DNA of 64,000 bases from an uncultured Acidobacteriota bacterium. GTDB taxonomy: Bacteria > Acidobacteriota > JAQAZP01. This document shows positions 22,800 to 38,409 of the stretch, one piece after another. The stretch's first letter is position 1, and every line of letters begins with the position of its first letter. The stretch lies in contig CAWIIB010000009.1 in NCBI GenBank assembly GCA_963836075.1, forward strand, positions 3,040,001 through 3,104,000, written 5' to 3'. Both the position numbers and the translations under genes were made by a program. Under the pieces are notes generated by a model, which saw only the letters and a program-made list of their open reading frames with translations, was not told the origin of the DNA and did not search any database.

Positions 22800-22805
22800 T
22801 TATAA

Positions 22806-22818: not shown

Positions 22819-22974
22819 TTGTGTTTTTGCGCTTTCTGAGGAATGAGCCCGAGTTTCTTTAATGGCTTCATTTCACGGCCTCCCGTGGCCCCCGGCCCTT
22901 GAGAACCCCGGTTTAGACCATTCACCTGATCTGCGCGCTTGTTTTACTAACTCCAAACCAAAGGAGAACCAGCC

Positions 22975-23862
22975 ATGGGAATTCATCGGTCACTCCGGAT
23001 GGTCGCCGTCGCCTGCATCGTCATGCTGGCCTGGGCGCCACTGGGAGCCTGGCAGGGTGTTGCCCGGGAGGGTACGCCCCTGCCGTCGAACACCACGCAT
23101 CTGGCGGTTCAGCTGACCACGCAGCAGCCGGTCAGCCCCACCCCGGGGATTCCCGAACGGGTCTACCCGGTGGACGCCTACAACCAGGGGAGCGACATCT
23201 GGCTCGCCATCCCGTCATCGGTTGCCGGCACGGACTTCGCCGGAGCCACGGTGCGGGTCTGCATCACGCCCCACCGGACCGTGCTGGACGGCTGGACGGA
23301 CGGCGCCGGGATCAAGGACTGCAGCGGCGGTTTCGAGACGGTGATGCTGCAGGCGGGGAGTTCGGCGGACAACTACGTGCTGGGCTGGAGCGGAGCCTGC
23401 ACCCTCGGCCGCTACGATGTGATCGTCGACTTCGAACCCTTTGGTGTCTACAACCTCGGCCGGGACATGATCGACCACGCCGGAATCGGCGGCTTCCAGG
23501 TGCTGGACAGCCGGGCCATCGACTACGTGCTGATCAGCCCCGATCGTGGGTGCGCCCGGATCATCGGCAACCAGTCCTACGTGGGCGGGCTCTACGAGCC
23601 GACCGAGGAGTTCGTACTCAACAGCTGGAACAACGGGATCAACGGGATTCCCGAGTACGGCGGCGGCGACGACGTGTTCGAGGGCATCCTTGCCGCCACC
23701 TGGTCCACCACGGTGGGCGGCAGCGTGGGCCGCATCGATTCGAGCACCGGTCTTTACGTGGCCGGGGGCTTCACCGGTGAAGGCGACGTCACGGCCTTCG
23801 CTTTCGGCGGCTGGACCGACACGGCATATGTCATGAGCACCACCCCCTCCTGGGTGCCGTAA
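22975..23862 (+). CDS. Heme-less QhpA-like protein (signal peptide, unknown domain, QHNDH alpha domain IV-like C-terminus), copy 1
   Basis: ISPDRGCARI...WNNGING.P..GGGDD...G...ATWS...VGRIDSSTGLY...GDVTA...TTPSW resembles QhpA domain IV; no CxxCH; directly upstream of a qhpC-like gene. Confidence 0.65.
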   Translation: MGIHRSLRMVAVACIVMLAWAPLGAWQGVAREGTPLPSNTTHLAVQLTTQQPVSPTPGIPERVYPVDAYNQGSDIWLAIPSSVAGTDFAGATVRVCITPHRTVLDGWTDGAGIKDCSGGFETVMLQAGSSADNYVLGWSGACTLGRYDVIVDFEPFGVYNLGRDMIDHAGIGGFQVLDSRAIDYVLISPDRGCARIIGNQSYVGGLYEPTEEFVLNSWNNGINGIPEYGGGDDVFEGILAATWSTTVGGSVGRIDSSTGLYVAGGFTGEGDVTAFAFGGWTDTAYVMSTTPSWVP

Positions 23863-23903
23863 AAAATCGTCCCTCCGGGCTTTGCTTCAAGGAGAGAAAC
23901 ACG

Positions 23904-24200
23904 ATGAAACATCTCAAGCCCCTGAACAAGCGGGCGATGAAACTGAGCGGCGACGAGGATCGCCCCGACGTCTTCGGCTACGCCTGCAGCATCTGCTGCA
24001 CGGCCTGGGCCCCGGGCTGGGAGGTGGGCGACGATCCGTATCCCGTCGACCCCTGCCCCTGGATGAGCGACCTGTCGCTCTGCTGGGTCACCTGCTACTG
24101 GACCGGCCAGGTGGCCGACGACACGGCGGAACCCAACTGGCTCGACGACTGTTCCCTGGTCTCCGAAGACTGGGTCCGTATCTGCGTGGTCCCCGACTGA
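23904..24200 (+). CDS. qhpC: QhpC-like (QHNDH gamma subunit) CTQ/thioether precursor peptide, copy 1
   Basis: Leader MKHLKPLNKRA; core C-x8(PGW)-E, C-x4-D-L-x2-C-x3-C-Y-W-x2-QVAD, PNW, DW; AGGAG RBS. Confidence 0.9.
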   Translation: MKHLKPLNKRAMKLSGDEDRPDVFGYACSICCTAWAPGWEVGDDPYPVDPCPWMSDLSLCWVTCYWTGQVADDTAEPNWLDDCSLVSEDWVRICVVPD

Positions 24201-24228
24201 TCACAGCGGCATATCCTGGAGGAAATCG

Positions 24229-25287
24229 ATGCAATCACGAAAAAGTTTCAGGATCCCGCGGGTCAGGGGACGATTCCCCGCCGTGTGGCTCTGCGCGTGC
24301 CTGCTGCTCACCCTGGCGGCGGCACCCGCTCTTGCGGGACAGCGCACCATCTTCGCCGGGGGCAACCACATCATGGTCATCGACGAGGCGACCATGAACG
24401 TGTTGGGCCAGATCCCGGTGCAGAAACATATCCACCAGCTGGTGGTGGACCAGGCCCGCGAACGGCTTTACGCCGCGCACAGCGGCGGGGTGGAGATCTT
24501 CAACGCCCGGTCTTACGCCTCGCTGGGCTTCTTTGCTGAGGACCCGGCCCGGCGGCTGGAGCTGAGCGCCGACGGCAATACGCTCTACGCCCTGACCCAC
24601 CCGATCCTGGTCAACGCCGACGGGCAGAAGCACGCCGGTGAATACGCGATCCAGATCATCGACCTGGTGCAGAGCAAGGTCAGCGGCTCGGTGAACCTGG
24701 GCTACGATATCTTTGACGCGGTGGTGGACCCGGTCAACGGCAAGGTGTTCGCCATGAAACGGTTCGACCGTTCGCTTTCCGTGCACAGCCTGGCCGAGGG
24801 CAAGCGGGTGGCCACGGTGAACGTGGCTTCGAACTTCGACCCGATGAAGGTCAACCTGCTGCACTTCATGTCCTCGAGCCCCGACGGGCAGCACCTCTAC
24901 GTGCCGCAGCACGGGGCATCGGCCTGTGTCTTCGACGTGGATACCCAGTCCGGCGCGTCGCGGCCCATCGACCTCGGCGGCGAGTATTTCATCCGCGACT
25001 CCCAGGTCTCGCCCGACGGGCGGAGCCTCTTCCTGCTCACTGCCGACCAGGTGATGGTGGTGGACACGGTGGGTCGGAGGGTGGCGGCCTCCGCGCCGCT
25101 GGAGGAGGTCTACATCGGCCTCGACCTCAGTGCCGACGGCTCCCGGGCCTACCTCAGCAACCCGCTGCACGGGGACGGCAGCGCCGGCAACCTGCTGGTG
25201 CTCGACGCCCGCTCACTCAAGGAGAGGGGGATGGTGGCGACCCCCGGCTTGTCCCTGTTCACGGCAGCTGCCTTCGAGCGTGACTGA
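24229..25287 (+). CDS. QhpB-like/YVTN beta-propeller, copy 1
   Basis: Signal peptide; repeated S(A/P)DG..LY blades; follows qhpC as qhpB does. Confidence 0.75.
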   Translation: MQSRKSFRIPRVRGRFPAVWLCACLLLTLAAAPALAGQRTIFAGGNHIMVIDEATMNVLGQIPVQKHIHQLVVDQARERLYAAHSGGVEIFNARSYASLGFFAEDPARRLELSADGNTLYALTHPILVNADGQKHAGEYAIQIIDLVQSKVSGSVNLGYDIFDAVVDPVNGKVFAMKRFDRSLSVHSLAEGKRVATVNVASNFDPMKVNLLHFMSSSPDGQHLYVPQHGASACVFDVDTQSGASRPIDLGGEYFIRDSQVSPDGRSLFLLTADQVMVVDTVGRRVAASAPLEEVYIGLDLSADGSRAYLSNPLHGDGSAGNLLVLDARSLKERGMVATPGLSLFTAAAFERD

Positions 25288-25308
25288 AGTTAGGAAGGAA
25301 AGAAGATC

Positions 25309-27690
25309 ATGAGCACTTGTTCCAAACGATTTCTGACCGTCCTGCTCACGCTGTGGGCGGTGGGGGCGCTCTGCGTCGTCCCGGCCCAGGCCGGGTTCGA
25401 AAAGATCGTTCTCGACGGCGGCGTGAACGGACCGAAGTCCATCCAGGTGGTGGACCTTGACGGGGTCAACGGCCTCGACATACTGGCGGTCCACGCCTTT
25501 GACGACCGGGTGGTGTGGTATGAGAACCTCGGCAACGAGGTCTACTCCATGCACAGCATCGGCACGATGAGCAACCCCTCGTCGGTGGCCGCGGGCGACC
25601 TGAACAACGACGGGTCTCTCGACCTGGTGGTGACCAGTTTCTCCGTCGGTCCCGAAAACTGGTATGTCTCCTACTACCTCAACGACGGCAGCGAGAACTT
25701 CACCCAGCACACCGTAGACAGCACCATGATGGGCGCCGAGGAAGTGGTGCTGGCCCATCTCGACAGCGGCACCAGTCTCGATATCGCGGTGGTGGGCTAC
25801 GAGTCGGACACCGTTGCCTGGTACAAGAACGACGGCGCGGCAACGCCGAGTTTCACCCGGCAGATCATCGCCAGCGACAAGGTCCAGTCCGAGTCGATCG
25901 ACGCTGCGGACCTCGACGGCGACGGTGACATCGACCTGGTGACCTCCGCCTTCCTGGACAACGAGATCCTCTGGTGGGAAAACTCCGGCGGCGCTTCGCC
26001 GACCTTCACCGAGCACGTGGCCTCGGGCCTGGTCAACGGCCCCAAGGACGTGGGTTTCGCCAATGTCGACGGCGACGGCGACCTGGACATCGTGGCCGTC
26101 TCCTTTTTCGATGACGAGGTGGTCTGGCTGGAGAACAACGGCCTCGAAACCTTCACCACCATCGTGGCCGGCGCCACGGCGCTCGGCCCGGTGGCCGTGG
26201 ACGCCGCCGACCGCAACGGCGACACCTTCGTCGACCTGGTGGTGTGCTGTTTCGACGGCGACGAGGTTGATTCATTCACCAACGACGGCCTGGAGAACTT
26301 CACCATGACCGTCGTCGACCCCGCCCTGGGCGGCGCCGAGTCACCGGTGGTGGTGGACCTGGACCAGGACGGCGAGGCCGACCTGGTGGCCGCAGGCTTC
26401 TTCGACGACAACATCGTCTGGTATGTCAACCAGGCGATCTTCTACGACGGGTTCACACTGGACGACACCGCCGGCGGCAACGGCGACGGCAACCCCGACC
26501 CGGGCGAGACCATCACCCTGGTGGTGGATATCCGCAACGAGGGGGATGGCACCCTCACCGGCGTCTCTGGCCAGCTGGACTCCAACCAGCCCGGCTACCT
26601 GACCTGGATCGACGACACCGCCAGCTATCCCGACATCCCGCCGGCAAGCAGCGCCTCGAGCAACTCACCGCACTTCAAGTTCACCCTGTCCCAGTCCACC
26701 CCCTGTGGCCAGGCCATCAGCTTCTCCTTTGACATGTTCTCCGACCAGGACAACGGCGGTGACGGCTTTGGCATGGGTATCGGCGGGATCGTCGATGACA
26801 TGGAGAGCGGCGAAGGCGCCTGGACCCATTACGCCGACATCGGCGTCGACGATTGGGCCATTGTGACCGTGGCCGAGGCGCACAGCCCGACCAGTGCCTG
26901 GTATGCCAGCGATGCCCCCGTCGACACCGACAAGAGCCTGATCTCCCCACCGGTGAACATCGCCGGCACCGGGGAATTCCGCTTCTGGCATACCTACAGC
27001 TACGAGAACTACTACGACGGCTGCATTATCGAGATCTCCACCGACGGCGGCTCCAGCTGGGCCGATATCGGCGGTCTGATCACTTCGGGCAACGGTTACA
27101 ACAACACACTGAGTGGCGGTAATCCGCTGGGTGCCGTTGAGGCGTGGTCTGGTGGCAACATCGGTGCCATGGAAGAAGTTGTTGTGGACCTCTCAAGCTA
27201 CAATGGAGAGACGGTGAACATCCGCTTCCACATGGGGTGCGACTACTCCATTGGCAGCACGGGCTGGTATATCGACGATGTGACCCTCGATGACTGCCAG
27301 GTCTACCAGGGCTCCACCATGGACTGCGACTACACCATCACCCCGCTGAGCGGCACCGTGCCGTTCCTGACGGTGCACCGCATCACCCTGTTCAACAACC
27401 TGGCCGGCGGCGCGGTCTACACGCGGCGGATCTCCGGGCGGATCGCGGTGACCATCGCCAACGGCACCACCTACAACCCCTGGCGTGCCGGTTACACCAA
27501 TATCGCGCCGTCCAGCACTTACTACAACCAGTTCCCGGTGAACTTCCCCGGGCTGCCCACGGTGCTGGGGGACAACACCTTCGTCCTCAATGCCATGGAC
27601 GTCACACCGGTGCCCTACAACCAGCCGCCCTATCCGCCGTCCGGCGATACGTGCACCACCACCAACGTGGTCAATGCGCACGCGCCCTAG
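25309..27690 (+). CDS. Secreted FG-GAP/VCBS repeat protein with a jelly-roll (immune inhibitor A/MAM-like) domain and a C-terminal domain, copy 1
   Basis: Signal peptide; ~7 DLDGDGD.D.V...D...W.EN repeats; GNGDG.PDPGET; YDGCIIEISTDGG.SW; GWYIDDV. Confidence 0.8.
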   Translation: MSTCSKRFLTVLLTLWAVGALCVVPAQAGFEKIVLDGGVNGPKSIQVVDLDGVNGLDILAVHAFDDRVVWYENLGNEVYSMHSIGTMSNPSSVAAGDLNNDGSLDLVVTSFSVGPENWYVSYYLNDGSENFTQHTVDSTMMGAEEVVLAHLDSGTSLDIAVVGYESDTVAWYKNDGAATPSFTRQIIASDKVQSESIDAADLDGDGDIDLVTSAFLDNEILWWENSGGASPTFTEHVASGLVNGPKDVGFANVDGDGDLDIVAVSFFDDEVVWLENNGLETFTTIVAGATALGPVAVDAADRNGDTFVDLVVCCFDGDEVDSFTNDGLENFTMTVVDPALGGAESPVVVDLDQDGEADLVAAGFFDDNIVWYVNQAIFYDGFTLDDTAGGNGDGNPDPGETITLVVDIRNEGDGTLTGVSGQLDSNQPGYLTWIDDTASYPDIPPASSASSNSPHFKFTLSQSTPCGQAISFSFDMFSDQDNGGDGFGMGIGGIVDDMESGEGAWTHYADIGVDDWAIVTVAEAHSPTSAWYASDAPVDTDKSLISPPVNIAGTGEFRFWHTYSYENYYDGCIIEISTDGGSSWADIGGLITSGNGYNNTLSGGNPLGAVEAWSGGNIGAMEEVVVDLSSYNGETVNIRFHMGCDYSIGSTGWYIDDVTLDDCQVYQGSTMDCDYTITPLSGTVPFLTVHRITLFNNLAGGAVYTRRISGRIAVTIANGTTYNPWRAGYTNIAPSSTYYNQFPVNFPGLPTVLGDNTFVLNAMDVTPVPYNQPPYPPSGDTCTTTNVVNAHAP

Positions 27691-27717
27691 AAGCCGGCGG
27701 TAACTTCGGTACACACC

Positions 27718-27749
27718 AGGCCCCCGGGAGCGATCCCGGGGGCCTTTTT
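27718..27749 (+). terminator. Intrinsic terminator of cassette 1
   Basis: AGGCCCCCGGGA-gcga-TCCCGGGGGCCTTTTT. Confidence 0.9.
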
Positions 27750-28080
27750 ACATGCGTTCAATCCCAGTGGCAGAGCATGGAATGAGCGATAGGGCACCAC
27801 CGCCTGGCCGGACGCATTGGCGATGTTATGTAAAGCTTTGAAAAAAATAGGACTATTTTTACTGTTGATACGACTCCGACTTGCACAAGAACGACAATTG
27901 CTTTATATATAATCAACAAGTTGTTGGTTTTTTGGCGCTTTTTGAGGAATGAGCCCGAGTTTCTTTAATGGCTTCATTTCACGGCCTCCCGCGGCCCCCG
28001 GCCTTTGAGACTCAAGGTATTCACCATTCACCTGATCTGCGCACCTGTTCTGCTAACTCCAAACCAAAGGAGAACCAGCC

Positions 28081-28968
28081 ATGGGAATTCATCGGTCACT
28101 CCGGATGGTCGCCGTCGCCTGCATCGTCATGCTGGCCTGGGCGCCACTGGGAGCCTGGCAGGGTGTTGCCCGGGAGGGTACGCCCCTGCCGTCGAACACC
28201 ACGCATCTGGCGGTTCAGCTGACCACGCAGCAGCCGGTCAGCCCCACCCCGGGGATTCCCGAACGGGTCTACCCGGTGGACGCCTACAACCAGGGGAGCG
28301 ACATCTGGCTCGCCATCCCGTCATCGGTTGCCGGCACGGACTTCGCCGGAGCCACGGTGCGGGTCTGCATCACGCCCCACCGGACCGTGCTGGACGGCTG
28401 GACGGACGGCGCCGGGATCAAGGACTGCAGCGACGGTTTCGAGACGGTGATGCTGCAGGCGGGGAGTTCGGCGGACAACTACGTGCTGGGCTGGAGCGGA
28501 GCCTGCACCCTCGGCCGCTACGATGTGATCGTCGACTTCGAACCCTTTGGTGTCTACAACCTCGGCCGGGACATGATCGACCACGCCGGAATCGGCGGCT
28601 TCCAGGTGCTGGACAGCCGGGCCATCGACTACGTGCTGATCAGCCCCGATCGTGGGTGCGCCCGGATCATCGGCAACCAGTCTTACGTGGGCGGGCTCTA
28701 CGAGCCGACCGAAGAGTTGGTACTCAACAGCTGGAACAACGGGATCAACGGGATTCCCGAGTACGGCGGCGGCGACGACGTGTTCGAGGGCATCCTTGCC
28801 GCCACCTGGTCCACCACGGTGGGCGGCAGCGTGGGCCGCATCGATTCGAGCACCGGTCTGTACGTGGCCGGGGGCTTCACCGGTGAAGGCGACGTCACGG
28901 CCTTCGCTTTCGGCGGCTGGACCGACACGGCATATGTCATGAGCACCACCCCCTCCTGGGTGCCGTAA
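28081..28968 (+). CDS. Heme-less QhpA-like protein, copy 2
   Basis: Two amino acid differences from copy 1 (SGG>SDG, EEFV>EELV). Confidence 0.65.
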   Translation: MGIHRSLRMVAVACIVMLAWAPLGAWQGVAREGTPLPSNTTHLAVQLTTQQPVSPTPGIPERVYPVDAYNQGSDIWLAIPSSVAGTDFAGATVRVCITPHRTVLDGWTDGAGIKDCSDGFETVMLQAGSSADNYVLGWSGACTLGRYDVIVDFEPFGVYNLGRDMIDHAGIGGFQVLDSRAIDYVLISPDRGCARIIGNQSYVGGLYEPTEELVLNSWNNGINGIPEYGGGDDVFEGILAATWSTTVGGSVGRIDSSTGLYVAGGFTGEGDVTAFAFGGWTDTAYVMSTTPSWVP

Positions 28969-29009
28969 AAAATCGTCCCTCCGGGCTTTGCTTCAAGGAG
29001 AGAAACACG

Positions 29010-29303
29010 ATGAAACATCTCAAGCCCCTGAACAAGCGGGCGATGAAACTGAGCGGCGACGAGGATCGCCCCGACGTCTTCGGCTACGCCTGCAGCATCT
29101 GCTGCACGGCCTGGGCCCCGGGCTGGGAGGTCGGGGAGTCGGGGAACGTGGACCCCTGCCCCTGGATGAGCGACCTGTCGCTCTGCTGGGTCACCTGCTA
29201 CTGGACCGGCCAGGTGGCCGACGACACGGCGGAACCCGACTGGCTCGACGACTGTTCCCTGGTCTCCGAAGACTGGGTCCGTATCTGCGTGGTCCCCGAC
29301 TGA
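29010..29303 (+). CDS. qhpC: QhpC-like precursor peptide, copy 2
   Basis: Same as copy 1 except loop GESGNVDP vs GDDPYPVDP and PDW vs PNW. Confidence 0.9.
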   Translation: MKHLKPLNKRAMKLSGDEDRPDVFGYACSICCTAWAPGWEVGESGNVDPCPWMSDLSLCWVTCYWTGQVADDTAEPDWLDDCSLVSEDWVRICVVPD

Positions 29304-29331
29304 TCACAGCGGCATATCCTGGAGGAAATCG

Positions 29332-30390
29332 ATGCAATCACGAAAAAGTTTCAGGATCCCGCGGGTCAGGGGACGATTCCCCGCCGTGTGGCTCTGCGCG
29401 TGCCTGCTGCTCACCCTGGCGGCGGCACCCGCTCTTGCGGGACAGCGCACCATCTTCGCCGGGGGCAACCACATCATGGTCATCGACGAGGCAACCATGA
29501 ACGTGTTGGGCCAGATCCCGGTGCAGAAACATATCCACCAGCTGGTGGTGGACCAGGCCCGCGAACGGCTTTACGCCGCGCACAGCGGCGGGGTGGAGAT
29601 CTTCAACGCCCGGTCTTACGCCTCGCTGGGCTTCTTTGCCGAGGACCCGGCCCGGCGGCTGGAGCTGAGCGCCGACGGCAATACGCTCTACGCCCTGACC
29701 CACCCGATCCTGGTCAACGCCGACGGGCAGAAGCACGCCGGTGAATACGCGATCCAGATCATCGACCTGGTGCAGAGCAAGGTCAGCGGCTCGGTGAACC
29801 TGGGCTACGATATCTTTGACGCGGTGGTGGACCCGGTCAACGGCAAGGTGTTCGCCATGAAACGGTTCGACCGTTCGCTTTCCGTGCACAGCCTGGCCGA
29901 GGGCAAGCGGGTGGCCACGGTGAACGTGGCTTCGAACTTCGACCCGATGAAGGTCAACCTGCTGCACTTCATGTCCTCGAGCCCCGACGGGCAGCACCTC
30001 TACGTGCCGCAGCACGGGGCATCGGCCTGTGTCTTCGACGTGGATACCCAGTCCGGCGCGTCGCGGCCCATCGACCTCGGCGGCGAGTATTTCATCCGCG
30101 ACTCCCAGGTCTCGCCCGACGGGCGGAGCCTCTTCCTGCTCACTGCCGACCAGGTGATGGTGGTGGACACGGTGGGTCGGAGGGTGGCGGCCTCCGCGCC
30201 GCTGGAGGAGGTCTACATCGGCCTCGACCTCAGTGCCGACGGCTCCCGGGCCTACCTCAGCAACCCGCTGCACGGGGACGGCAGCGCCGGCAACCTGCTG
30301 GTGCTCGACGCCCGCTCACTCAAGGAGAGGGGGATGGTGGCGACCCCCGGCTTGTCCCTGTTCACGGCAGCTGCCTTCGAGCGTGACTGA
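29332..30390 (+). CDS. QhpB-like beta-propeller, copy 2
   Basis: Translation appears identical to copy 1. Confidence 0.75.
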   Translation: MQSRKSFRIPRVRGRFPAVWLCACLLLTLAAAPALAGQRTIFAGGNHIMVIDEATMNVLGQIPVQKHIHQLVVDQARERLYAAHSGGVEIFNARSYASLGFFAEDPARRLELSADGNTLYALTHPILVNADGQKHAGEYAIQIIDLVQSKVSGSVNLGYDIFDAVVDPVNGKVFAMKRFDRSLSVHSLAEGKRVATVNVASNFDPMKVNLLHFMSSSPDGQHLYVPQHGASACVFDVDTQSGASRPIDLGGEYFIRDSQVSPDGRSLFLLTADQVMVVDTVGRRVAASAPLEEVYIGLDLSADGSRAYLSNPLHGDGSAGNLLVLDARSLKERGMVATPGLSLFTAAAFERD

Positions 30391-30411
30391 AGTTAGGAAG
30401 GAAAGAAGATC

Positions 30412-32799
30412 ATGAGCACTTGTTCCAAACGATTTCTGACCGTCCTGCTCACGCTGTGGGCGGTGGGGGCGCTCTGCGTCGTCCCGGCCCAGGCCGGGTT
30501 CGAAAAGATCGTTCTCGACGGCGGCGTGAACGGACCGAAGTCCATCCAGGTGGTGGACCTTGACGGGGTCAACGGCCTCGACATGGTGGCGGTCCACACC
30601 TTTGACGACCGGGTGGTGTGGTACGAGAATAGCGGAACCGAGTTTTTTACCATGCATGTGATCGGCACGATGAGCAACCCCTCGTCGGTGGCCGTGGGTG
30701 ACCTGAACAACGACGGGTCTCTCGACCTGGTGGTGACCAGTTTCTACGCCGGTTCCGAAAACTGGTATATCTCCTACTACCTCAACGACGGCAGCGAGAA
30801 CTTCACCCAGCACACTATCGACACCATCCTCGACGGCGCGGAAGAAGTGGTGCTGGCCCATCTCGACAGCGGCACCAGCCTCGATATCGCGGTGGTGGGC
30901 TACGAAGCGGATGCCGTGGCCTGGTATGAGAGCGACGGTGCGGCAACGCCGAACTTCACCCGCCAGATCATCGCCACCGACAAGGTGCACTCCGAGTCCA
31001 TCGACGCCGCGGACCTCGACGGCGACGGTGACATCGACCTGGTGACTTCCGCTTTCTACGACAACGAGATCCTCTGGTGGGAAAACTCCGGCGGCGCTTC
31101 GCCGACCTTCACCGAACACGTGGCCTCGGGCCTGGTCAGCGGCCCCAAGGACGTGGGTTTCGCCAATGTCGACGGCGACGGCGACCTGGACATCGTGGCC
31201 GTCTCCTTTTTCGATGACGAGGTGGTCTGGTTGGAGAACAACGGCCTCGAAACCTTCACCACCATCGTGGCCGGCGCCACGGCGCGCGGCCCGGTGGCCG
31301 TGCACGCCGCCGACCGCAACGGCGACACCTTCATCGACCTGGTGGTGGGCTGCTTCGACGGCGACGAGGTAGATTCATTCACCAACGACGGCCTGGAGAA
31401 CTTCACCATGGCCGTCGTCGACCCCGCCCTGGGCGGTGCCGAGTCGCCGGTGGTGGTGGACCTGGACCAGGACGGCGAGACCGACCTGGTGGCCGCCGGC
31501 TTCTATGACGACAACATCGTCTGGTATGTCAACAAGTCCATCTTCTTTGACGGCTACACCTTCGACGACACCGCCGGCGGCAACGGCGACGGCAACCCCG
31601 ACCCGGGCGAGACCATCACCCTGGTGCTGGACATCCGCAACGAGGGGGATGGCACCCTCACCGGCGTCTCTGGCCAGCTGGACTCCAACCTGCCCGGCTA
31701 CCTGACCTGGATCCACGACACCGCCAGCTATCCCGACATCCCGGCGGCGAGCAGCGCCTCGAGCAACTCACCGCACTTCAAGTTCAGCCTGGCCCAGGAC
31801 ACCCCCTGTGGCCAGGGGATCACCTTCACCTTTGACATGTTCTCCGACCAGGACAACGGCGGCTCCGGTTTCGGCATGACCGTGGGCGGGATCATCGACG
31901 ACATGGAAAGCGGCGAAGGCGACTGGACCCACTATGCGTACGCCGGAACCGACGACTGGGCCATCGTGACCCTGGCCCAGGCCCACAGTCCGACCCAGGC
32001 CTGGTACGGTTCTGATGTCGGTGAGATCACGGACAAAAGTCTGGTGACCTCAACGGTGAACGTCACCGGATCCGCGCTGTTCAGCTTCTGGCAGACCTAC
32101 AATTTCGAAGGCGGCTGGGACGGCGGCGTGATCGAAATCTCCACCGATGGCGGGACAAACTGGGCCGACATCGGCGGCCTGGTCACTTCGGGCAACGGCT
32201 ACAACTCCACGCTGAACACCGGCTACAACAACCCGCTGGAAGGCCGTGACGCCTGGTCCGGCGGCACCATCGGCACCATGGAAGAAGTCGTTGTGGATCT
32301 CACCACCTATCTGGGCGAGACGGCGAACATCCGCTTCCGCATCGGTTGTGACAGCATCCAGGGCGATGTGGGCTGGTATATCGACGACGTGACCCTCGAT
32401 GACTGCCAGGTCTACCAGGGCTCCACCATGGACTGCGACTACACCATCACGCCGCTGAGCGGCACCGTGCCGTTCCTGACGGTGCACCGCATCACCCTGT
32501 TCAACAACCTGGCCGGCAGCGCGGTCTACACGCGGCGGATCTCCGGGCGGATCGCGGTGACCATCGCCAACGGCACCACCTACAACCCCTGGCGTGCCGG
32601 TTACACCAATATCGCGCCGTCCAGCACTTACTACAACCAGTTCCCGGTGAACTTCCCCGGGCTGCCAACGGTGCTGGGGGACAACACCTTCGTCCTCAAT
32701 GCCATGGACGTCACACCGGTGCCCTACAACCAGCCGCCCTATCCGCCGTCCGGCGATACGTGCACCACCACCAACGTGGTCAATGCGCACGCGCCTTAG
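30412..32799 (+). CDS. Secreted FG-GAP/VCBS repeat protein, copy 2
   Basis: Near-identical termini, diverged interior relative to copy 1. Confidence 0.8.
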   Translation: MSTCSKRFLTVLLTLWAVGALCVVPAQAGFEKIVLDGGVNGPKSIQVVDLDGVNGLDMVAVHTFDDRVVWYENSGTEFFTMHVIGTMSNPSSVAVGDLNNDGSLDLVVTSFYAGSENWYISYYLNDGSENFTQHTIDTILDGAEEVVLAHLDSGTSLDIAVVGYEADAVAWYESDGAATPNFTRQIIATDKVHSESIDAADLDGDGDIDLVTSAFYDNEILWWENSGGASPTFTEHVASGLVSGPKDVGFANVDGDGDLDIVAVSFFDDEVVWLENNGLETFTTIVAGATARGPVAVHAADRNGDTFIDLVVGCFDGDEVDSFTNDGLENFTMAVVDPALGGAESPVVVDLDQDGETDLVAAGFYDDNIVWYVNKSIFFDGYTFDDTAGGNGDGNPDPGETITLVLDIRNEGDGTLTGVSGQLDSNLPGYLTWIHDTASYPDIPAASSASSNSPHFKFSLAQDTPCGQGITFTFDMFSDQDNGGSGFGMTVGGIIDDMESGEGDWTHYAYAGTDDWAIVTLAQAHSPTQAWYGSDVGEITDKSLVTSTVNVTGSALFSFWQTYNFEGGWDGGVIEISTDGGTNWADIGGLVTSGNGYNSTLNTGYNNPLEGRDAWSGGTIGTMEEVVVDLTTYLGETANIRFRIGCDSIQGDVGWYIDDVTLDDCQVYQGSTMDCDYTITPLSGTVPFLTVHRITLFNNLAGSAVYTRRISGRIAVTIANGTTYNPWRAGYTNIAPSSTYYNQFPVNFPGLPTVLGDNTFVLNAMDVTPVPYNQPPYPPSGDTCTTTNVVNAHAP

Positions 32800-32826
32800 A
32801 AGCCGGCGGTAACTTCGGTACACACC

Positions 32827-32858
32827 AGGCCCCCGGGAGCGATCCCGGGGGCCTTTTT
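32827..32858 (+). terminator. Intrinsic terminator of cassette 2
   Basis: Identical hairpin and U-tract to 27718-27749. Confidence 0.9.
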
Positions 32859-32993
32859 ACATGCGTTCAATCCCAGTGGCAGAGCATGGAATGAGTATTT
32901 TCGGTCAGGTCTGGACATCTATCCTGCATTCCGGTGACGTTGGAGCCCTTCGCGACCGGAGCCGGATGCAGGATAGATATCCAGACGCTGCAG

Positions 32994-33455
32994 CTACTCC
33001 TCCGGGTTCACCTGGACCAGCTGGATGTCGGTGTCGGCCAGCAGGCGCTGCATGATCTCGATCTTGTAGGGCTTGATGTAGTGGATGCGGTTGATTCCAA
33101 CATTGATCAACACCTTGCCGCAGTGGTAGCAGGGGGAGTGGGTGATGTAGATGTCGGCCCCGCGGATGGCGGTGCCGTTGGAAGCCGCCTGGGCTATGGC
33201 GTTGATCTCGGAGTGGATGGTGCGGAAGCAGTTCTCCTCCTCGGCGCCGTCCGGGTCCGTGGAGTGGTAGATCAGGCAGCCCACGTCGTCACAGTGGGGC
33301 TGGCCGGAGGGTGAGCCGTTGTATCCGGTGGCCAGTATCGAGCGGTTCCTGACCAGTACCGATCCCACCGCGGCCCGGGGACAGGTGGACCGTTCGGCCA
33401 CCTGAAGGGCGATTCTCATGAAGTAGCGATCCCAGTCCAGTCTCCCTCGGCTCAC
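32994..33455 (-). CDS. dCMP deaminase (ComEB family)
   Basis: WDRYFM.IA..VAERSTC, ATGYNG, TIHSEINA, SPCYHC. Confidence 0.9.
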   Translation of the reverse strand: MSRGRLDWDRYFMRIALQVAERSTCPRAAVGSVLVRNRSILATGYNGSPSGQPHCDDVGCLIYHSTDPDGAEEENCFRTIHSEINAIAQAASNGTAIRGADIYITHSPCYHCGKVLINVGINRIHYIKPYKIEIMQRLLADTDIQLVQVNPEE

Positions 33456-33492
33456 GTCGTCATCCCTCCATGTCTGGATAGCCGGTTCGATT

Positions 33493-35124
33493 TCAGTGCA
33501 GGGTCCCGGCGGTGTCGCTCCACTGGTTGCCGATGCGGTCCACCACCTCCTGCAGTGCGTCCGGCAGATTTTCAGCTCGCGCCTTCATTGTATCAGCGCT
33601 GTTTTCTTCTATCCAATCCGCGGCCGCGGTCATCAGCTGGAACTGGGAACGGGTGGAGGCCCGGCGCACCAGGTCCTCGTCGCCCGGTTTACGCCCCCGC
33701 ACCAGTGTGGCCAGCGCGCCGGCCATCCGGCCGGTGAGCGGGACCAGGACCTCCATCCGCGGGTCCTCGAAGCGGAAATCCCAGCCGAACCCGGCGGTGG
33801 ACCGGCGCACCAGGCCGTCGGCCATGGCCTTGCGGAAGATGGGGGTGAACTCATTGTAGAGGGTCAGCCGGGAGCCCACCGAGATGGCGGTGCGCAGGAA
33901 CGGGGCCTCCTGCTCGATAATCTCCAGGTTCTCCCGCAGCTCTTCCAGGCGGCACCAGGGGTGCAGCAGGATCAGCCCGTGGCCGCGGTAGCCTTCCACC
34001 GCCTGCGGGCCGAATCTCTGATGCAGGCCGCGCAGGATGCGGCAGGCCTCGATGTTCTCCTCCACCGTGGCCCCCTTGTTGAAGATGTCCAGGTGGCGCT
34101 GGACAAAGCTCTCGAACCCCAGCTGCATGATCTGCATCCTGCCCCCGGTGGCCGAGAGGCGGGTGATGCACCGCTCCAGAAGTTCCCGGTGACGAACCAG
34201 CAGCGCCGGTGTGGAGCGGATATAGAGCCGGGCCGGAGCGACCCCCTGGTCAATTGCCTTGTTCACCAGCGGCTCGAGAAAGCGGAAGGGGTTTTCGCTC
34301 TGGATGTAGACGTCACTGGTCTTCCACTGTTCTCTCAGGTGAAGCGCCTGTTCCAGCACCAGGTCCACCGTTTCGTCCACCGGCAGGAGGCGGGTCTCCT
34401 GGTTGCGGAAGACGCAGAAACTGCAGCCCCGGGACCCCGTCTCGATCTGTCGGGTCAACGCCTGCCGGGCCCGGGGAAGCAAGCTGGGATCGTTCAGCAC
34501 CGGGTGCGGGGGCAGGTTCCGGAACAGTTCGTTCTGTGCCGCGGGGCGGGCATAGTGGCACCCGAACTCGGGTACCACCGCGGGGAGCTTCAGCGAGACA
34601 CCACGGCTCCTGCCGGGGCCGACATAGGTCCAACGGAACTCCGGGCGATAGGGCAGGATCTCGGCACGCACATCCCACACACCGTCAATTCCGCTGTGGT
34701 CCACCTTGCCCCCGGGCACTCTGTGGAACAGACCGGGGACCTGGTCCAGCGTCCCCTTGCCGCACAGGGCACTGACCAGGGCCAGGATCGCCCGTCTCCC
34801 CGGCCCCACCACGGCGTATTCCGCCGGGCTGTGCAGAAAGAGGGTCAGGGCATTCACACCGCCCAGCAGCATCGGCGTCTTCCCCAGCTCACCCTTGATC
34901 CGCCGCACCGCCTGCAGCGGGAAGATCGACTCCAGGGCCACCAGGTCGAGTTGTTTTTCCCGGGCAATGGACGGGATACGCTCCGCCTCGGCGATATTGA
35001 CGAGGTAGGGGTGGCACTCCACCCCGGCATCGCGCAAGTCGTTGACAAATAGGCACATGCCGAGGTGAGGCGGTGTGTCCGGGTAGAGAAGTTCGCAGGC
35101 GAAAAGCCCGATTTTGAGCGGCAT
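33493..35124 (-). CDS. Atypical radical SAM protein with a B12-binding-like N-terminus and a split Cys motif
   Basis: LLGG...AEYAVVGPG; GC-x44-GCSFC; LGFESF....L..FNKG.T.E.N; GLIL.HPW; start ATG 35124. Confidence 0.7.
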   Translation of the reverse strand: MPLKIGLFACELLYPDTPPHLGMCLFVNDLRDAGVECHPYLVNIAEAERIPSIAREKQLDLVALESIFPLQAVRRIKGELGKTPMLLGGVNALTLFLHSPAEYAVVGPGRRAILALVSALCGKGTLDQVPGLFHRVPGGKVDHSGIDGVWDVRAEILPYRPEFRWTYVGPGRSRGVSLKLPAVVPEFGCHYARPAAQNELFRNLPPHPVLNDPSLLPRARQALTRQIETGSRGCSFCVFRNQETRLLPVDETVDLVLEQALHLREQWKTSDVYIQSENPFRFLEPLVNKAIDQGVAPARLYIRSTPALLVRHRELLERCITRLSATGGRMQIMQLGFESFVQRHLDIFNKGATVEENIEACRILRGLHQRFGPQAVEGYRGHGLILLHPWCRLEELRENLEIIEQEAPFLRTAISVGSRLTLYNEFTPIFRKAMADGLVRRSTAGFGWDFRFEDPRMEVLVPLTGRMAGALATLVRGRKPGDEDLVRRASTRSQFQLMTAAADWIEENSADTMKARAENLPDALQEVVDRIGNQWSDTAGTLH

Positions 35125-35359
35125 CTGGATCTCCGCTGAGCAGCACTGAAATCGGACCGGGGGACCGGCCGCGGGCGGTGCAGAGTATAGCACATCGTAA
35201 CCGGGGGAGAGCGGAGGTCATGCTGGGGAGCAATGATCGCCAAATTCCGGATCAATTTGTTGGGCATCGAAAAGATAAGTTTTTGTCTTAAAACATGTTC
35301 GACAGCCTCTCGCGCAATCGCAGAAATAAAGTAATTGTTGATTCTCCAGGAGAATTGCC

Positions 35360-35388
35360 TTGCTCGACAGGATACCGGGGGCTATAAT
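35360..35388 (+). promoter_or_regulatory. Sigma70-type promoter of the main qhp-like operon
   Basis: TTGCTC-N17-TATAAT. Confidence 0.65.
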
Positions 35389-35612
35389 ACCGAGGCATAT
35401 GTGTGTTCAGTTTCATGATGATCTGTGGTTTGAGCTGCAGGTATTTCTTTTCGAGTTGCAGCCATGAGAGCGCTTGTCCCCGGAGAGTTCCAGCAATACC
35501 GGGTGGTGACGCTGATGTGTCGGTTTATCCGGCGCAACCGCGGCACTTTGGTGTCTGGTTCCCGGTCCTGGGCAAGCACATTGCCGCATGGCGTCAGGAG
35601 GAGGTGCCAGGG

Positions 35613-36527
35613 ATGAAGGAACGGATCTGTTTGCTGAGCCGGATGGCCCCGATACTGGGAGTCATTCTGGCGGCGGCCGTACTTGCTTTCGGGCCATTGG
35701 CCGTGGAGTGTCCCGCGGAGGGCTTCGGGGCCTCGACCGCGCCCACCGTGGCGTTGAGCACCCAGGCGCCGGTGGCGCCGCTGCCCAACGCGCCCGACTG
35801 GGTATATTACGTCGACGGCTTCGCCCCGGGACAGGATGTCTGGGTTGCCGTGCCGTCGGTGGCCAACGGGCACGATCTCTCCGGGTCGACGGCCCGGGTC
35901 TACATCATGCCCCACCGCGCACCGGAGTCATGGACCAACGGGTCCCGGCTGCTCGACATCAGCGGCGGGTATGAGATGATCACCATCCAGCCGGGGAAGC
36001 CGTTCGACAACTACCTGATGATCTGGTCCGGCCCTTCGCGCGTGGGGACCTACGACATCATCCTCGACCTCGAGCCCTACGGCACCTTTCAGCGTGACAC
36101 CGACCTGGTGGACCACGGCGGCAAGACCGGCATCCCCGGTTTCGCCATTCTCGGCGCGGGCAGTGTCGACTACCTGATGATCACTCCTGACACGGGGTTC
36201 ATGGGCAAAGTCTGCACGCGGATCTTCGGCGTGGGCCCCTATCCCGGCGCCCTGCCCGAAGGCGTCGAGTTTTTCGTGGCCACCGGCTGGAACAACGGTG
36301 CCAACGGCACACCCGAGAGCGGCGGCGGCGACGACGTGAACCTGGGGCCGGTGAGTGCCGAATGGTCGACCACCTTGGCCCAGGAGGTGGGCCGGATCAA
36401 CGAACTCAACGGCGTCTACTCCACCGGCGAGATTACCGGCGACGGCGACGTGATGGCCACCTATCCCGGTGCCACCGGAGACAGCGTGCCCATTAACACC
36501 ACCGCTCCCACGTGGGTCAGGGACTGA
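35613..36527 (+). CDS. Heme-less QhpA-like protein, paralogue 3
   Basis: Homologous along its length to copies 1 and 2; GWNNGANGTPESGGGDDVNLGPVSAEWS...VGRINE..G...GDVMATY...TAPTW; no CxxCH; GGAGGAGG RBS. Confidence 0.65.
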   Translation: MKERICLLSRMAPILGVILAAAVLAFGPLAVECPAEGFGASTAPTVALSTQAPVAPLPNAPDWVYYVDGFAPGQDVWVAVPSVANGHDLSGSTARVYIMPHRAPESWTNGSRLLDISGGYEMITIQPGKPFDNYLMIWSGPSRVGTYDIILDLEPYGTFQRDTDLVDHGGKTGIPGFAILGAGSVDYLMITPDTGFMGKVCTRIFGVGPYPGALPEGVEFFVATGWNNGANGTPESGGGDDVNLGPVSAEWSTTLAQEVGRINELNGVYSTGEITGDGDVMATYPGATGDSVPINTTAPTWVRD

Positions 36528-36567
36528 GCGGAGCGATCCGCCGCGGCGCAGGAGAGAAGGGACCGCA

Positions 36568-38025
36568 ATGACCGAACCGGGTGGCAGCGAAAAGGAACTG
36601 GCTTTGCGGGAGGTTCACGTCTTCCGCGAGCGGGAGCGCGATTTTCTGCTCTCGGTGCCCAACTGCGCCTTCTGGAACGTGGGTGACACGGCCGCGGCCA
36701 TGGTCCGCCAGATTTCCCGGGAAAAGAAGAAGTCGAACAGCTGGACGCGCACGGCGCTTCAGGACCGGTTCGGCGACGAGTACGGCCGGGAAGAGGTTGG
36801 CGAGATCGTGGACGAGCTGGCCGGTGTCGGTCTGCTCTACGAGAAGGCCGACGGCTCCACAGCTCCCGAGGCGGCTCCGGACCGCTTTCCCCGCTCGCCG
36901 CTGCAGATCGGTTCGCTGGTCTGCCACGTGGCCCACGACTGCAACCTCAACTGCTCCTACTGCTACGGTGGCGGCGGTTCCTACGGCGGCAAAACCGAGT
37001 TGATGACCGAGGAGATGGGGCTGCGCTACGTCGAGATGCTCTTTGCCAACTCCGGCCAGCTGGACAGCGTCCACATGACCTTTTTCGGCGGCGAGCCGCT
37101 GATGAACATGCCCGTGGTTCGAGCGGCAGTGGCCCGCGGCGAGGAGCTGGCCAAGGAGACCGGCAAGAAGATCACCTTCAGCCTGACCACCAACGGCACC
37201 CTGGTTACCCCGGAAATTGCCGGCTACCTGGACGAGCACCGTATCGGCGTCTCGCTCAGTCTCGACGGTCCGCCGGAGATCAACGACGCGGTGCGCGTGT
37301 TCAAGGACAGCGACGAGAGCACCTACGAAGCGGTTCGCAAGGTGATGTCCATGTTCCAGAAGGGCCGGCCGCTGGGCACCCGGGTCACCCTGACCCGCAA
37401 GTCGCTCGATGTGACCGGCATCGTGGACCACCTGCTGAAGATGGGCTTTTTCGAGGTCGGTGTCACCCCGGTGAACTGCGGTGACCCGGAGCTGGACTTC
37501 GACAAGGACGATCTCGAACGGTTCCACGAGGAGTGCTGTGCCATCGGTGATCTCTATCTCGAGCGGGCGAAGGCCGGAGGCTACTACGGTTTCTCCAACC
37601 TCTCCAACGTGCTGCGGCAGCTGCACACCGGCGAGGACAAGGCCTATCCCTGCGGAGCCGGTATCCAGCTTTACGCCGGCGACCCCTCGGGAGAACTCTT
37701 CATGTGCCACCGGCTGGTGGGTAACGAGAAGTACCGCGTGGGCGACGTGGATCAGGGTATCGATCACGACCGGCAGGCCGAGTTCCTGCGCCAGGTCAAC
37801 CTGGAAAACAAGGAGGGCTGCAGCGGTTGCTGGGCCCGTTACATCTGCAGCGGCGGCTGCTACTACATCTCGGAACTGCACTACGGGGACCCGTCCCGCA
37901 CTCACCACCTCTACTGCAGGTTTCTGCGCAAGTGGTACCAGGACGGCATCGGTCTCTACGCCGAGATCATGGAGAGCTGCCCGGAGTTTATCGCCAAGGT
38001 TCTCGAACCCCGCATCGTCTGCTGA
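36568..38025 (+). CDS. qhpD: QhpD-like radical SAM/SPASM peptide thioether-forming maturase
   Basis: N-terminal RRE-like region; CNLNCSYC; FFGGEPL; TTNGT; SLDGP; SPASM LH.G..KAYPCGAG...CHR...CSGCWARYICSGGC...C; located between alpha-like and gamma-like genes. Confidence 0.88.
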   Translation: MTEPGGSEKELALREVHVFRERERDFLLSVPNCAFWNVGDTAAAMVRQISREKKKSNSWTRTALQDRFGDEYGREEVGEIVDELAGVGLLYEKADGSTAPEAAPDRFPRSPLQIGSLVCHVAHDCNLNCSYCYGGGGSYGGKTELMTEEMGLRYVEMLFANSGQLDSVHMTFFGGEPLMNMPVVRAAVARGEELAKETGKKITFSLTTNGTLVTPEIAGYLDEHRIGVSLSLDGPPEINDAVRVFKDSDESTYEAVRKVMSMFQKGRPLGTRVTLTRKSLDVTGIVDHLLKMGFFEVGVTPVNCGDPELDFDKDDLERFHEECCAIGDLYLERAKAGGYYGFSNLSNVLRQLHTGEDKAYPCGAGIQLYAGDPSGELFMCHRLVGNEKYRVGDVDQGIDHDRQAEFLRQVNLENKEGCSGCWARYICSGGCYYISELHYGDPSRTHHLYCRFLRKWYQDGIGLYAEIMESCPEFIAKVLEPRIVC

Positions 38026-38115
38026 AAAAAATGCGCGGCGCCGGGTCTCGACAGATCAGATGTTCAGCTGCTCACGGTGGGAGAGCCGGGAGCGGCACTG
38101 GACGGGAGGACCAAG

Positions 38116-38409
38116 ATGAAGCACCTCAGACCAATGAATCGCAGAGCCAGGCAGGCTTCAGGCCTGGACGGACCGGATGTCTACGGGTATGCCTGCACCG
38201 ACTGCTGCACCGCCTGGGCACCGGGGTGGGAGACCGGCCAGTCGGGCAGCGTGGACCCCTGTCCCTGGGCCAGTGACCTCTACCTCTGCTGGGTGACCTG
38301 TTACTGGACAGGCCAGGTGGCGGACGACTACTGGGAGCCCAACTGGCTCGACGCCTGCGGACAGCTTGCCGAAGACTGGTACCGCATCTGCGTCGTGCCC
38401 GACAACTAG
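38116..38409 (+). CDS. qhpC: QhpC-like precursor peptide, paralogue 3
   Basis: GGAGG RBS; MKHLRPMNRRA...ACTDCCTAWAPGWE...DPCPWASDLYLCWVTCYWTGQVADD..EPNW...C....DW.RIC. Confidence 0.9.
   Translation: MKHLRPMNRRARQASGLDGPDVYGYACTDCCTAWAPGWETGQSGSVDPCPWASDLYLCWVTCYWTGQVADDYWEPNWLDACGQLAEDWYRICVVPDN

Follow-up and report, generated by a model that had tools for sequence, protein, structure and literature searches.

Three short open reading frames (ORFs) in a 64,000-nucleotide stretch of DNA from an uncultured Acidobacteriota bacterium (assembly GCA_963836075.1, contig CAWIIB010000009.1; the whole stretch is called the window below) encode eight-cysteine precursors that resemble QhpC, the gamma subunit of quinohemoprotein amine dehydrogenase (QHNDH). 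Do these genes specify an ordinary QHNDH whose small subunit has gained cysteines, or a different kind of enzyme? The biogenesis of cysteine tryptophylquinone (CTQ), the cofactor formed in QhpC, is a model for proteins that build their own cofactors. We found that the main difference from the known systems lies outside the gamma genes: the cluster has no haem alpha subunit and no QhpG, and it contains a pair of U32-superfamily genes. It is this haem-less, QhpG-less, U32-associated architecture, more than the cysteine count, that gives the locus its main interest. With a probability of roughly 60%, we read the products as haem-less CTQ dehydrogenase isoenzymes, relatives of QHNDH, in which the extra cysteines are structural staples, probably with a C83-C94 disulfide.

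Three gamma precursors of the QhpC family

The gamma genes were located as follows:
23904-24200, + strand: gamma precursor 1 (98 aa, 8 Cys; AAGGAG Shine-Dalgarno sequence upstream)
29010-29303, + strand: gamma precursor 2 (97 aa, 8 Cys; 93.9% identical to copy 1)
38116-38409, + strand: gamma precursor 3 (97 aa, 8 Cys; 71% identical to copy 1)

All three paralogues keep the eight cysteines (positions 28, 31, 32, 51, 60, 64, 83 and 94 in gamma 1, whose numbering is used throughout and whose other residues named below are E40, D56, W66 and D72) at a mutual identity of 71-94%, and gamma 2 differs from gamma 1 mainly in the loop of residues 43-47. The start of gamma 3 is most likely the ATG at 38116 rather than the GTG at 38077, because GGAGG lies upstream and the orthologue in a genome of the same genus (locus L004) begins at the same methionine. 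These are the only three gamma genes in the source genome (6.2 Mb, 94.7% complete, 10 contigs).

Each copy was matched by the NCBIfam family QH_gamma NF037958 (E 2e-13, 4e-14 and 1e-10 for copies 1, 2 and 3; 50.1, 52.3 and 41.4 bits, cut-off 50) and by Pfam PF08992 (E 5e-5, 8e-7 and 3e-6; 23.6, 29.5 and 27.6 bits, cut-off 25). Copy 2 is above both curated cut-offs and the other copies are each above one of them, which makes family membership borderline by these scores. Furthermore, phmmer against PDB chains retrieved the gamma subunits 1jju_C (E 2.9e-6) and 1jmx_G (E 9e-5). Judged by these alignments, the homology to the QhpC family is beyond chance. The original prediction of three QhpC-like precursors with eight cysteines was thus borne out, the ORFs ending where it had placed them and all three copies matching the gamma family significantly (NF037958, E <=1e-10).

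In the HMMER alignment to 1jju_C, residues C31, E40, C51, D56, C60, C64, W66 and D72 correspond to C7, E16, C27, D33, C37, C41, W43 and D49. The precursors therefore share with QhpC of Paracoccus denitrificans and Pseudomonas putida (PDB 1JJU chain C and 1JMX chain G) the leader, the four canonical cysteines, the Glu16, Asp33 and Asp49 acceptors and the CTQ tryptophan Trp43, all at aligned positions, as had been claimed for the pairs C31-E40, C51-D56 and C64-D72 and for C60 and W66. We take Cys7-Glu16 and Cys27-Asp33 to be paired in the canonical subunit and Asp33 to be its catalytic base. The numbering Cys37/Trp43, Cys41-Asp49, Asp12, Asp33 and Asp39 in the available portion of Oozeki et al. 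2021 (PMC7876137) agrees with our alignment, and a further paper (PMC13692751, 2026) confirms one Cys-Glu and two Cys-Asp crosslinks and no more than that.

The precursors differ from canonical QhpC in having eight rather than four cysteines and in the middle ring. A one-residue gap after C51 shortens the ring that holds the Asp33 equivalent to C-x4-D, as predicted, and the canonical set of ring sizes (C-x8-E, C-x5-D, C-x7-D) is therefore broken at this ring. C-x4-D was found in 13 of 13 close homologues and in relatives with seven cysteines, while the four- and five-cysteine types have x5. The announced motif changes relative to the Paracoccus gamma, FDPGWE to WAPGWE and ADPCWW to WVTCYW, are present as well; as distinguishing marks they held only in part, V-T and [YF]W occurring also in a common five-cysteine type (CYVTCFW).

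The retained residues indicate a functional CTQ subunit with no positive sign of new chemistry. Quinone-dependent amine-type dehydrogenation is probably kept, because D56, C60 and W66 are retained. We found no support for the suggestion of a different substrate or chemistry, since the CTQ cysteine and tryptophan, the Asp33 equivalent and all three thioether acceptors are in place.

The dihaem subunit and QhpG are missing

As in canonical QHNDH clusters, the gamma genes lie near genes for a QhpD-like radical S-adenosylmethionine (SAM) enzyme, a beta-propeller, an ATP-binding cassette (ABC) exporter and a QhpE-like protease. Unlike these clusters, the locus has neither a dihaem alpha subunit nor QhpG. 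No CxxCH motif occurs in the 22 proteins encoded between 22975 and 50739. In the whole source genome the best match to QhpA (TIGR03908) reached 18.7 bits (cut-off 274) and the best match to QhpG (NF049967) 66.6 bits (cut-off 240), the latter being a generic FAD-binding type that was also seen in 14 of 14 control genomes. None of four related genomes exceeded either cut-off (best QhpG match 183.6 bits, partial), and a QhpG-like gene at E 1e-45 was present in 0 of 3 genomes of the genus. By comparison, 47 of the 50 canonical loci with full flanks have QhpG. These absences, together with the U32 pair, support the earlier claim of a system distinct from classical QHNDH.

The roles of QhpD, QhpG and QhpE are described in the available portion of Oozeki et al. 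2021 (PMC7876137), where D12, D39 and W42 are modelled QhpG-QhpC interface residues. In the window gammas these are Ala, Val and Tyr, respectively. The changes are weak evidence for QhpG loss, because the five-cysteine type that retains QhpG has similar ones.

In all three loci the gamma gene lies between genes for an alpha-like and a beta-propeller protein, both with signal peptides:
22975-23862, + strand: alpha-like subunit 1 (295 aa, signal peptide, no CxxCH; its C-terminal half alone resembles QhpA domain IV)
24229-25287, + strand: beta-propeller subunit 1 (352 aa, signal peptide; adjoins gamma in loci L004-L007)
28081-28968, + strand: alpha-like subunit 2 (99.3% identical to copy 1)
29332-30390, + strand: beta subunit 2 (100% identical to copy 1)
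35613-36527, + strand: alpha-like subunit 3 (304 aa from a conserved Met; 45% identical to alpha-like 1)
38483-39535, + strand: beta subunit 3 (350 aa from the Met preceding the signal peptide; 32% identical to beta 1)
39602-40738, + strand: fourth beta-propeller paralogue (378 aa, signal peptide; without a gamma or alpha-like gene of its own)

Alpha-like 1 scored 18.2 bits with Pfam PF09100, under the gathering cut-off (GA) of 25, and alpha-like 3, whose start was set by an in-frame stop upstream in L004, scored 26.8 bits, above it. A word-based search returned only 13 close homologues, and the 17-row family profile matched only QhpA residues 354-439 (1jju_A, E 2.3e-6). By sequence, the dihaem subunit has been lost, with a domain-IV remnant in its place or, in L006 and L007 from two metagenome-assembled genomes (MAGs) labelled Pseudomonadota, nothing. 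In L006 and L007, genes upstream of QhpD were considered as alpha candidates and discarded: they lack CxxCH, hit no Pfam family and do not match the alpha-like profile. An AlphaFold 2 (AF2) model of the alpha-like protein from a 6-row alignment had a predicted local distance difference test score (pLDDT) of 38 and was left unused; residues 30-182 gave an Ig-like cluster at 0.75 in the ESM Atlas, a weak lead.

The beta proteins are remote matches to TIGR03907 QH_beta (28-29 bits, cut-off 223). The fourth paralogue has 24% identity to both beta 1 (E 6e-9) and beta 3 (E 2e-10), and no Pfam family was found for it. Prediction of a complex of mature gamma, beta and alpha-like proteins scored a median of 0.10, the mark being 0.32, which speaks neither for nor against binding.

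A single maturation operon with a U32 pair

Locus 3 has the order alpha-like, QhpD-like, gamma, beta, fourth beta, P0017, U32, ABC exporter, QhpE-like and two FG-GAP genes. Its maturation genes are:
36568-38025, + strand: QhpD-like radical SAM/SPASM maturase (best family TIGR03906, 390.6 bits, cut-off 453)
40743-41684, + strand: P0017, probable distant U32-superfamily protein (313 aa; resembles UbiV)
41688-42776, + strand: P0018, U32-family Fe-S protein (362 aa; PF01136 119 bits, GA 22.4)
42773-44596, + strand: ABC exporter, QhpF-like (start overlaps the U32 stop codon)
44593-45411, + strand: QhpE-like subtilisin, leader peptidase (NF049966 154.6 bits, cut-off 165)

The QhpD-like enzyme is about 37% identical to canonical QhpD. 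The beta and QhpE-like genes occupy the operon positions they have in canonical loci, and homologues of the ABC exporter were found in 72 of 80 such loci. This single set (QhpD-like enzyme, U32 pair, ABC exporter and QhpE-like protease) probably serves all three paralogues, because there are only three gamma genes and one tightly coupled maturation operon with overlapping stop and start codons.

The U32 pair lies between the beta genes and the exporter. P0018 has the invariant cysteines C190-x6-C197-x12-C210; it reached 103.3 bits with the UbiU equivalog NF047963, under the cut-off of 440, and its type adjoins gamma or beta in L006, L007 and the same-genus genomes G001 and G002. P0017 has four invariant cysteines (C65...C229-x18-C248-x3-C252) and no Pfam match, and a BLASTP comparison of the two proteins was not significant. 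Its 30-row family profile aligned with the cluster U32 family in hhalign at a probability of 92.7% (E 4e-7). An AF2 model of P0017 (pLDDT 84) is a TIM barrel, whose top VIA match among 48,161 chains was the U32 structure 5d88_A (Z 12.2, rmsd 3.8, 199 residues), tied with other barrels; Foldseek against the PDB gave generic TIM barrels only (TM 0.3-0.4). Searches of PDB sequences with P0017 and P0018 by phmmer and profiles found no related structure at E <0.01, and the sole row at that level, 5u4s_A (E 0.0013), was rejected as an unrelated short-chain dehydrogenase. The P0017 family has at least 368 members, including Bacillota anaerobes (Desulfosporosinus, Acididesulfobacillus), almost all annotated as hypothetical. 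The U32 pair is probably used beyond qhp clusters.

The U32 pair as a candidate substitute for QhpG

To our knowledge, QhpG is the only known hydroxylase for CTQ, and it needs O2. The genes most like the pair are those of UbiU-UbiV in anaerobic ubiquinone synthesis: both systems have two adjacent U32-superfamily genes (P0017 being a probable, distant member), P0018 carries PF01136 and CX6CX12C, and the CXnCX18CX3C pattern of P0017 resembles the CXnCX12CX3C given for UbiV in the available portion of bioRxiv 10.1101/587956. Aromatic-ring hydroxylation that is O2-independent and prephenate-dependent is the presumed activity of UbiU-UbiV and of further U32 proteins, as far as the available portion of PMC10990095 goes. 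As with UbiUV and UbiIHF, the pair was found where a flavin monooxygenase that carries out this kind of aromatic hydroxylation is either lacking or duplicated. The systems also differ: P0018 is not a UbiU equivalog, P0017 lacks a Pfam match and no UbiT-like gene was seen here, and the substrate is a prenylphenol there and would be a protein tryptophan here.

The QhpG step has probably been taken over by the U32 pair. We put forward more tentatively, at somewhat less than even odds, the full proposal that this is a haem-less CTQ quinoprotein whose tryptophylquinone would be made without O2, the pair replacing QhpG through prephenate-dependent hydroxylation of a protein-bound tryptophan. The conserved QhpG-less arrangement with a U32 Fe-S pair is a concrete, testable candidate for an anaerobic route to CTQ and, if the proposal is true, would give the U32 hydroxylase family its first protein substrate. 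According to the same portion of PMC10990095, most U32 subfamilies await characterisation and activity in vitro has yet to be demonstrated. Our literature search for U32 with cysteine tryptophylquinone retrieved no paper linking U32 proteins to CTQ, and searches on QhpC/D/G and on CTQ under anaerobic conditions retrieved nothing relevant. The QhpG-orthologue alignments that supplement PMC7876137 may already list qhp operons without QhpG.

Gene content among relatives bears on this substitution. The entire layout recurs in two genomes of the genus (L004 from G001, also numbered G011; L005 from G002, also numbered G030, and titled an Acidobacteriota MAG). L006 and L007 have a seven-cysteine gamma without C28, 52-55% identical to the window gammas, in the gene order QhpD-gamma-beta-P17-U32-ABC-QhpE. 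In each of these four related genomes, gamma and a cluster-type U32 gene are on one contig; the pair is on the gamma contig in 5 of 5 genomes with a seven- or eight-cysteine gamma, and QhpG exceeded its cut-off in 0 of 5.

In a sample of 401 genomes of the phylum, the high-scoring eight-cysteine type was confined to its own genus (3/3), and lower-scoring gamma genes occurred in 27 further genomes. Roughly 22 of these 27 have a near-full-length QhpG-like gene. Among 20 inspected five-cysteine loci of the phylum, a full QhpA was within 10 kb of gamma in all 20, a QhpG-like gene in 14, the P17 and U32 pair in one and an alpha-like gene in none. A cluster-type U32 match (E<=1e-60) was found in 6 of the 401 genomes, all six among the 30 gamma-positive ones (4/4 genera); kin among these six are not independent cases, one match is a contig-end fragment and one lies on another contig with an in-frame stop. 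That of G224 is on the gamma contig but has an in-frame TGA. The G224 pair belongs to a five-cysteine locus with haem alpha (L112), and no full-length QhpG was found in the G224 genome (best 146 bits, on another contig).

The pair is also present in 4 of 80 canonical loci, three with QhpG (L010-L012) and one, L063, without QhpG within 10 kb. L010, L011 and L012 come from Proteobacteria MAGs with a four-cysteine qhp cluster and haem QhpA, and have both QhpG and the pair downstream of QhpE (about 14076-15816), like organisms that keep aerobic (UbiIHF) and anaerobic (UbiUV) hydroxylases side by side. G282 (L111), a complete 8.8-Mb genome from this phylum, is a counter-example: its five-cysteine qhp cluster has QhpA, QhpD, ABC exporter and QhpE, and neither QhpG (best 90.9 bits) nor the pair (cluster-type U32 sought at E<=1e-60) was found. 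It may use a third route to CTQ or carry the gene elsewhere. G328 and G363, with weak QhpG-like matches only, are counter-examples as well.

Only some of the extra cysteines are unusual

A word-based gamma search returned 11 relatives, and a 13-row alignment of close homologues was built. All eight cysteines are present in 12 of the 13, C94 being replaced by Arg in the remaining one, so that the extra cysteines are indeed conserved in homologues; E40 is Gly in one of the 13. A profile search over 1.84 billion representatives gave 43 proteins at E<=1e-3, from which the 38 of <=200 aa were aligned. A cysteine at the C83 position was found in 32 of these 38. C94 occurs in 8/38, always with C83 and a terminal ..PD Asp; C32, the second cysteine of the CC doublet, in 6/38 (one of them a frameshifted artefact); and C28 in 4/38.

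Paracoccus/Pseudomonas-like gammas have four cysteines in 77 of the 80 loci fetched by a canonical query, and at least one of the three outliers is an artefact of translation past the stop codon. A second very common QhpC type has five, the canonical four plus the C83 equivalent, and all nine other same-phylum loci inspected (L102-L110) are of this type. Like the window gammas, it has V-T-C-[FY]-W and no acidic residue where canonical QhpC has D12. In contrast, it lacks C28, C32 and C94, ends in DL[IV]FP instead of CVVPD and keeps the x5 ring, and its loci have a full QhpA (20/20) and often a QhpG-like gene (14/20). In this type (L102-L110, P0027-type), the commonest among the representatives, the lone extra cysteine stands in a ...DW[AT]xKC... 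context and has no possible intramolecular disulfide partner.

A maximum-likelihood gamma tree of 35 rows, made after dropping 22 fragmentary or frameshifted rows, placed proteins with both the CC doublet and the x4 ring in one clade on a long branch (support 100/99) and split all C94-bearing proteins from the four- and five-cysteine types (support 97/92). By sequence comparison, C83 and most of the altered motifs are ordinary in the family, and the features specific to the clade are C32 in the C31-C32 doublet, C94 together with a CVVPD tail, D49 and the x4 ring, to which this genus adds C28. The claim that all three paralogues add four cysteines therefore holds against the Paracoccus/Pseudomonas type and fails in general: C83 alone proved common in QhpC, an outcome that the original prediction had itself named as counting against it, and C28, C32 and C94 are rarer. 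With one of the four ordinary in the family, the extra cysteines by themselves are a modest finding.

Staples, thioethers or a metal site

On the reading as haem-less CTQ dehydrogenase isoenzymes, the conserved leader MKHLKPLNxRA... would be bound, by homology, by the sole QhpD-like radical SAM enzyme, encoded in locus 3, which would form the three canonical thioethers C31-E40, C51-D56 and C64-D72. W66 would be dihydroxylated and linked to C60 to give CTQ, the QhpE-like protease would cut off the leader and the ABC transporter would export the crosslinked subunit. In the periplasm, gamma would join the Sec-exported beta-propeller and the small alpha-like protein. Electrons would leave CTQ to an external acceptor, which is required because there is no haem subunit; by what path they do so with haem-less partners is a question that the locus raises.

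The extra cysteines most likely serve as structural staples, gamma being more exposed where the large alpha subunit no longer encloses it. C83 would be inherited from the common five-cysteine type, C94 would probably pair with it as a periplasmic disulfide that fixes the C-terminal CVVPD tail, and C32, plus C28 in this genus, would form a second local staple. Under the full proposal of a CTQ made without O2, this gamma would be more heavily stapled than any other protein of its kind, carrying CTQ, three thioethers and, in addition, one or two disulfides or extra thioethers.

Several points weigh against this picture. The gamma scores lie on both sides of the curated PF08992 and NF037958 cut-offs, and the beta, QhpD-like and QhpE-like proteins are all under their equivalog cut-offs. 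One homologue in the 13-row alignment lacks E40 and another lacks C94. The proposed C83-C94 pairing draws on the co-occurrence of the two residues. Seven-cysteine members (L006, L007, P0019, P0023 and P0024) have three extra cysteines, which cannot all be in disulfides, and two extra cysteines are followed by a conserved acidic residue at thioether-like spacing: C83-x5-D89, as in C27-x5-D33, and C94-x3-D98. Moreover, neither an alpha nor an alpha-like gene was found within 10 kb of gamma in L006 or L007, and the alpha-like protein may for this reason not be an obligatory subunit.

The odd number of extra cysteines in the seven-cysteine members and the ring-like C-x5-D and C-x3-D spacings make further thioethers a serious rival. 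The QhpD-like enzyme would form C83-D89, C94-D98 and C32-D49 or C32-E40, giving up to seven crosslinks in some 74 residues. The C83-x5-D89 spacing equals that of canonical C27-x5-D33, D98 is present in 8 of 8 representatives with C94 and in 1 of 30 without it, and D49 is restricted to the CC-doublet clade. The lone C83 of the widespread five-cysteine type is incapable of an intramolecular disulfide, and the maturase is divergent by score and identity (390 bits against a cut-off of 453; about 37%). D89, however, is kept in four-cysteine proteins without C83 and is not tied to the cysteine, and D49 is kept without C32 in P0021. Weighing these, we regard extra thioethers as less likely, at somewhat under half the probability that we give to staples. 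As a separate matter, an Asp at position 94 in many five-cysteine proteins hinted at a C83-D94 thioether in that type, replaced here by a disulfide; this idea was dropped because six C83-bearing representatives have other residues at position 94.

A metal or Fe-S centre bound by C28, C32, C83 and C94, which would replace the haems as electron relay from CTQ, would explain four extra, strictly conserved cysteines exactly where the dihaem subunit is missing, and CxxCC is reminiscent of metal-binding motifs. Nevertheless, the seven-cysteine sister group without C28 also lacks haem alpha, C83 is older than the haem loss (a full QhpA accompanies all 20 inspected five-cysteine loci) and ABC export after cytoplasmic crosslinking would be unusual for a cluster-bearing protein. 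We consider this relay improbable.

It is highly improbable that the genes encode secreted ranthipeptide-like natural products (RiPPs, peptides made on the ribosome and modified after translation) instead of enzyme subunits: the precursors are short, Cys-rich and multiple, with leader, protease and ABC exporter, and the maturase also matches the ranthipeptide maturases PapB and SCIFF (279 and 255 bits), but QhpD is its best family, the PapB score (NF047865, 278.7 bits) stays below both the QhpD score and its own cut-off of 340, the CTQ Cys/Trp and the Asp33 equivalent are conserved, and a QhpB-homologous beta-propeller stands beside every copy in all loci. An ordinary QHNDH with its haem alpha and QhpG genes at another place, or missed with the unassembled 5% of this 94.7% complete, 10-contig genome, has just as slight a chance, given that whole-genome QhpA and QhpG matches reach only fractions of their cut-offs, that both are likewise under cut-off in 4 of 4 related genomes and that QhpA lies within 10 kb of gamma in 20 of 20 same-phylum five-cysteine loci.

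The haem-less CTQ dehydrogenases proposed here have parallels in the methylamine and aromatic amine dehydrogenases, which contain tryptophan tryptophylquinone (TTQ): these too are haem-less tryptophylquinone enzymes with a small subunit held by many Cys-based links and an external electron carrier. They differ in having TTQ and not CTQ, no sequence relationship and no radical SAM thioethers. According to the available portion of PMC7876137, the TTQ subunit of methylamine dehydrogenase (MADH, beta) has six disulfides where QhpC has thioethers, and is matured by MauG in the periplasm. The staple reading suggests a possible evolutionary bridge between QHNDH, with its thioether-stapled small subunit, and the disulfide-stapled TTQ dehydrogenases.

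Habitat, duplication and neighbouring genes

Contigs identical or 94-97% identical to locus 3 were found in metagenomes of freshwater sediment/soil, salt marsh and marine sediment (four runs, three studies; two runs covering 30/30 bins and the others 27 and 24; runs with shares under 0.2 were not used). No RNA run was among those found to carry the locus. O2 is scarce in sediment and salt-marsh habitats. The organism is not a strict anaerobe, because its genome encodes two COX1-family oxidases; a low-O2 lifestyle is plausible.

Further genes of the loci encode FG-GAP proteins:
25309-27690, + strand: FG-GAP repeat and MAM-domain protein 1 (793 aa, secreted; 22 nt past beta)
30412-32799, + strand: FG-GAP/MAM protein 2 (86% identical to copy 1)
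45408-46556 and 46372-47649, + strand: two FG-GAP repeat proteins (last genes of the operon; second start uncertain)

FG-GAP/MAM protein 1 matched Pfam PF13517 (94.5 bits) and PF20773 (34.7 bits), and the gene is kept in L004 and L005 and absent from L006 and L007. Loci 1 and 2 form a 5.1-kb tandem duplication (22792-27786 versus 27895-32895; 94.5% nucleotide identity over 5,010 aligned columns), the unit of which comprises the alpha-like, gamma, beta-propeller and FG-GAP/MAM genes. The copies have diverged unevenly. The beta and alpha-like proteins are 100% and 99.3% identical, respectively, the gamma loop 43-47 reads DDPYP versus ESGN, and the C-terminal part of the FG-GAP/MAM gene has about 77% nucleotide identity in 26925-27243. 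The loop is variable among close homologues as well. This uneven divergence suggests recombination or diversifying selection.

A gene on the minus strand between loci 2 and 3 (33493-35193) encodes a B12-binding/radical-SAM-like protein with an atypical GCSFC instead of CxxxCxxC. It is in an operon with a cytidine/dCMP deaminase gene (32994-33455, minus strand), an arrangement kept in L004 and L005. We considered it as a second crosslinking enzyme; it is probably unrelated, being absent near L006 and L007 and in an operon with the deaminase. A plus-strand ORF of 518 aa over the same region is a shadow frame (conservation 64%, compared to 87% for the minus-strand gene). Downstream of the operon, a minus-strand ORF of 1006 aa (47719-50739) matched no Pfam family at E<=1e-4 and has a coding-like third-position GC content (GC3) of 0.86. 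A second B12-binding/radical-SAM-like gene is located at 17061-18647 on the minus strand.

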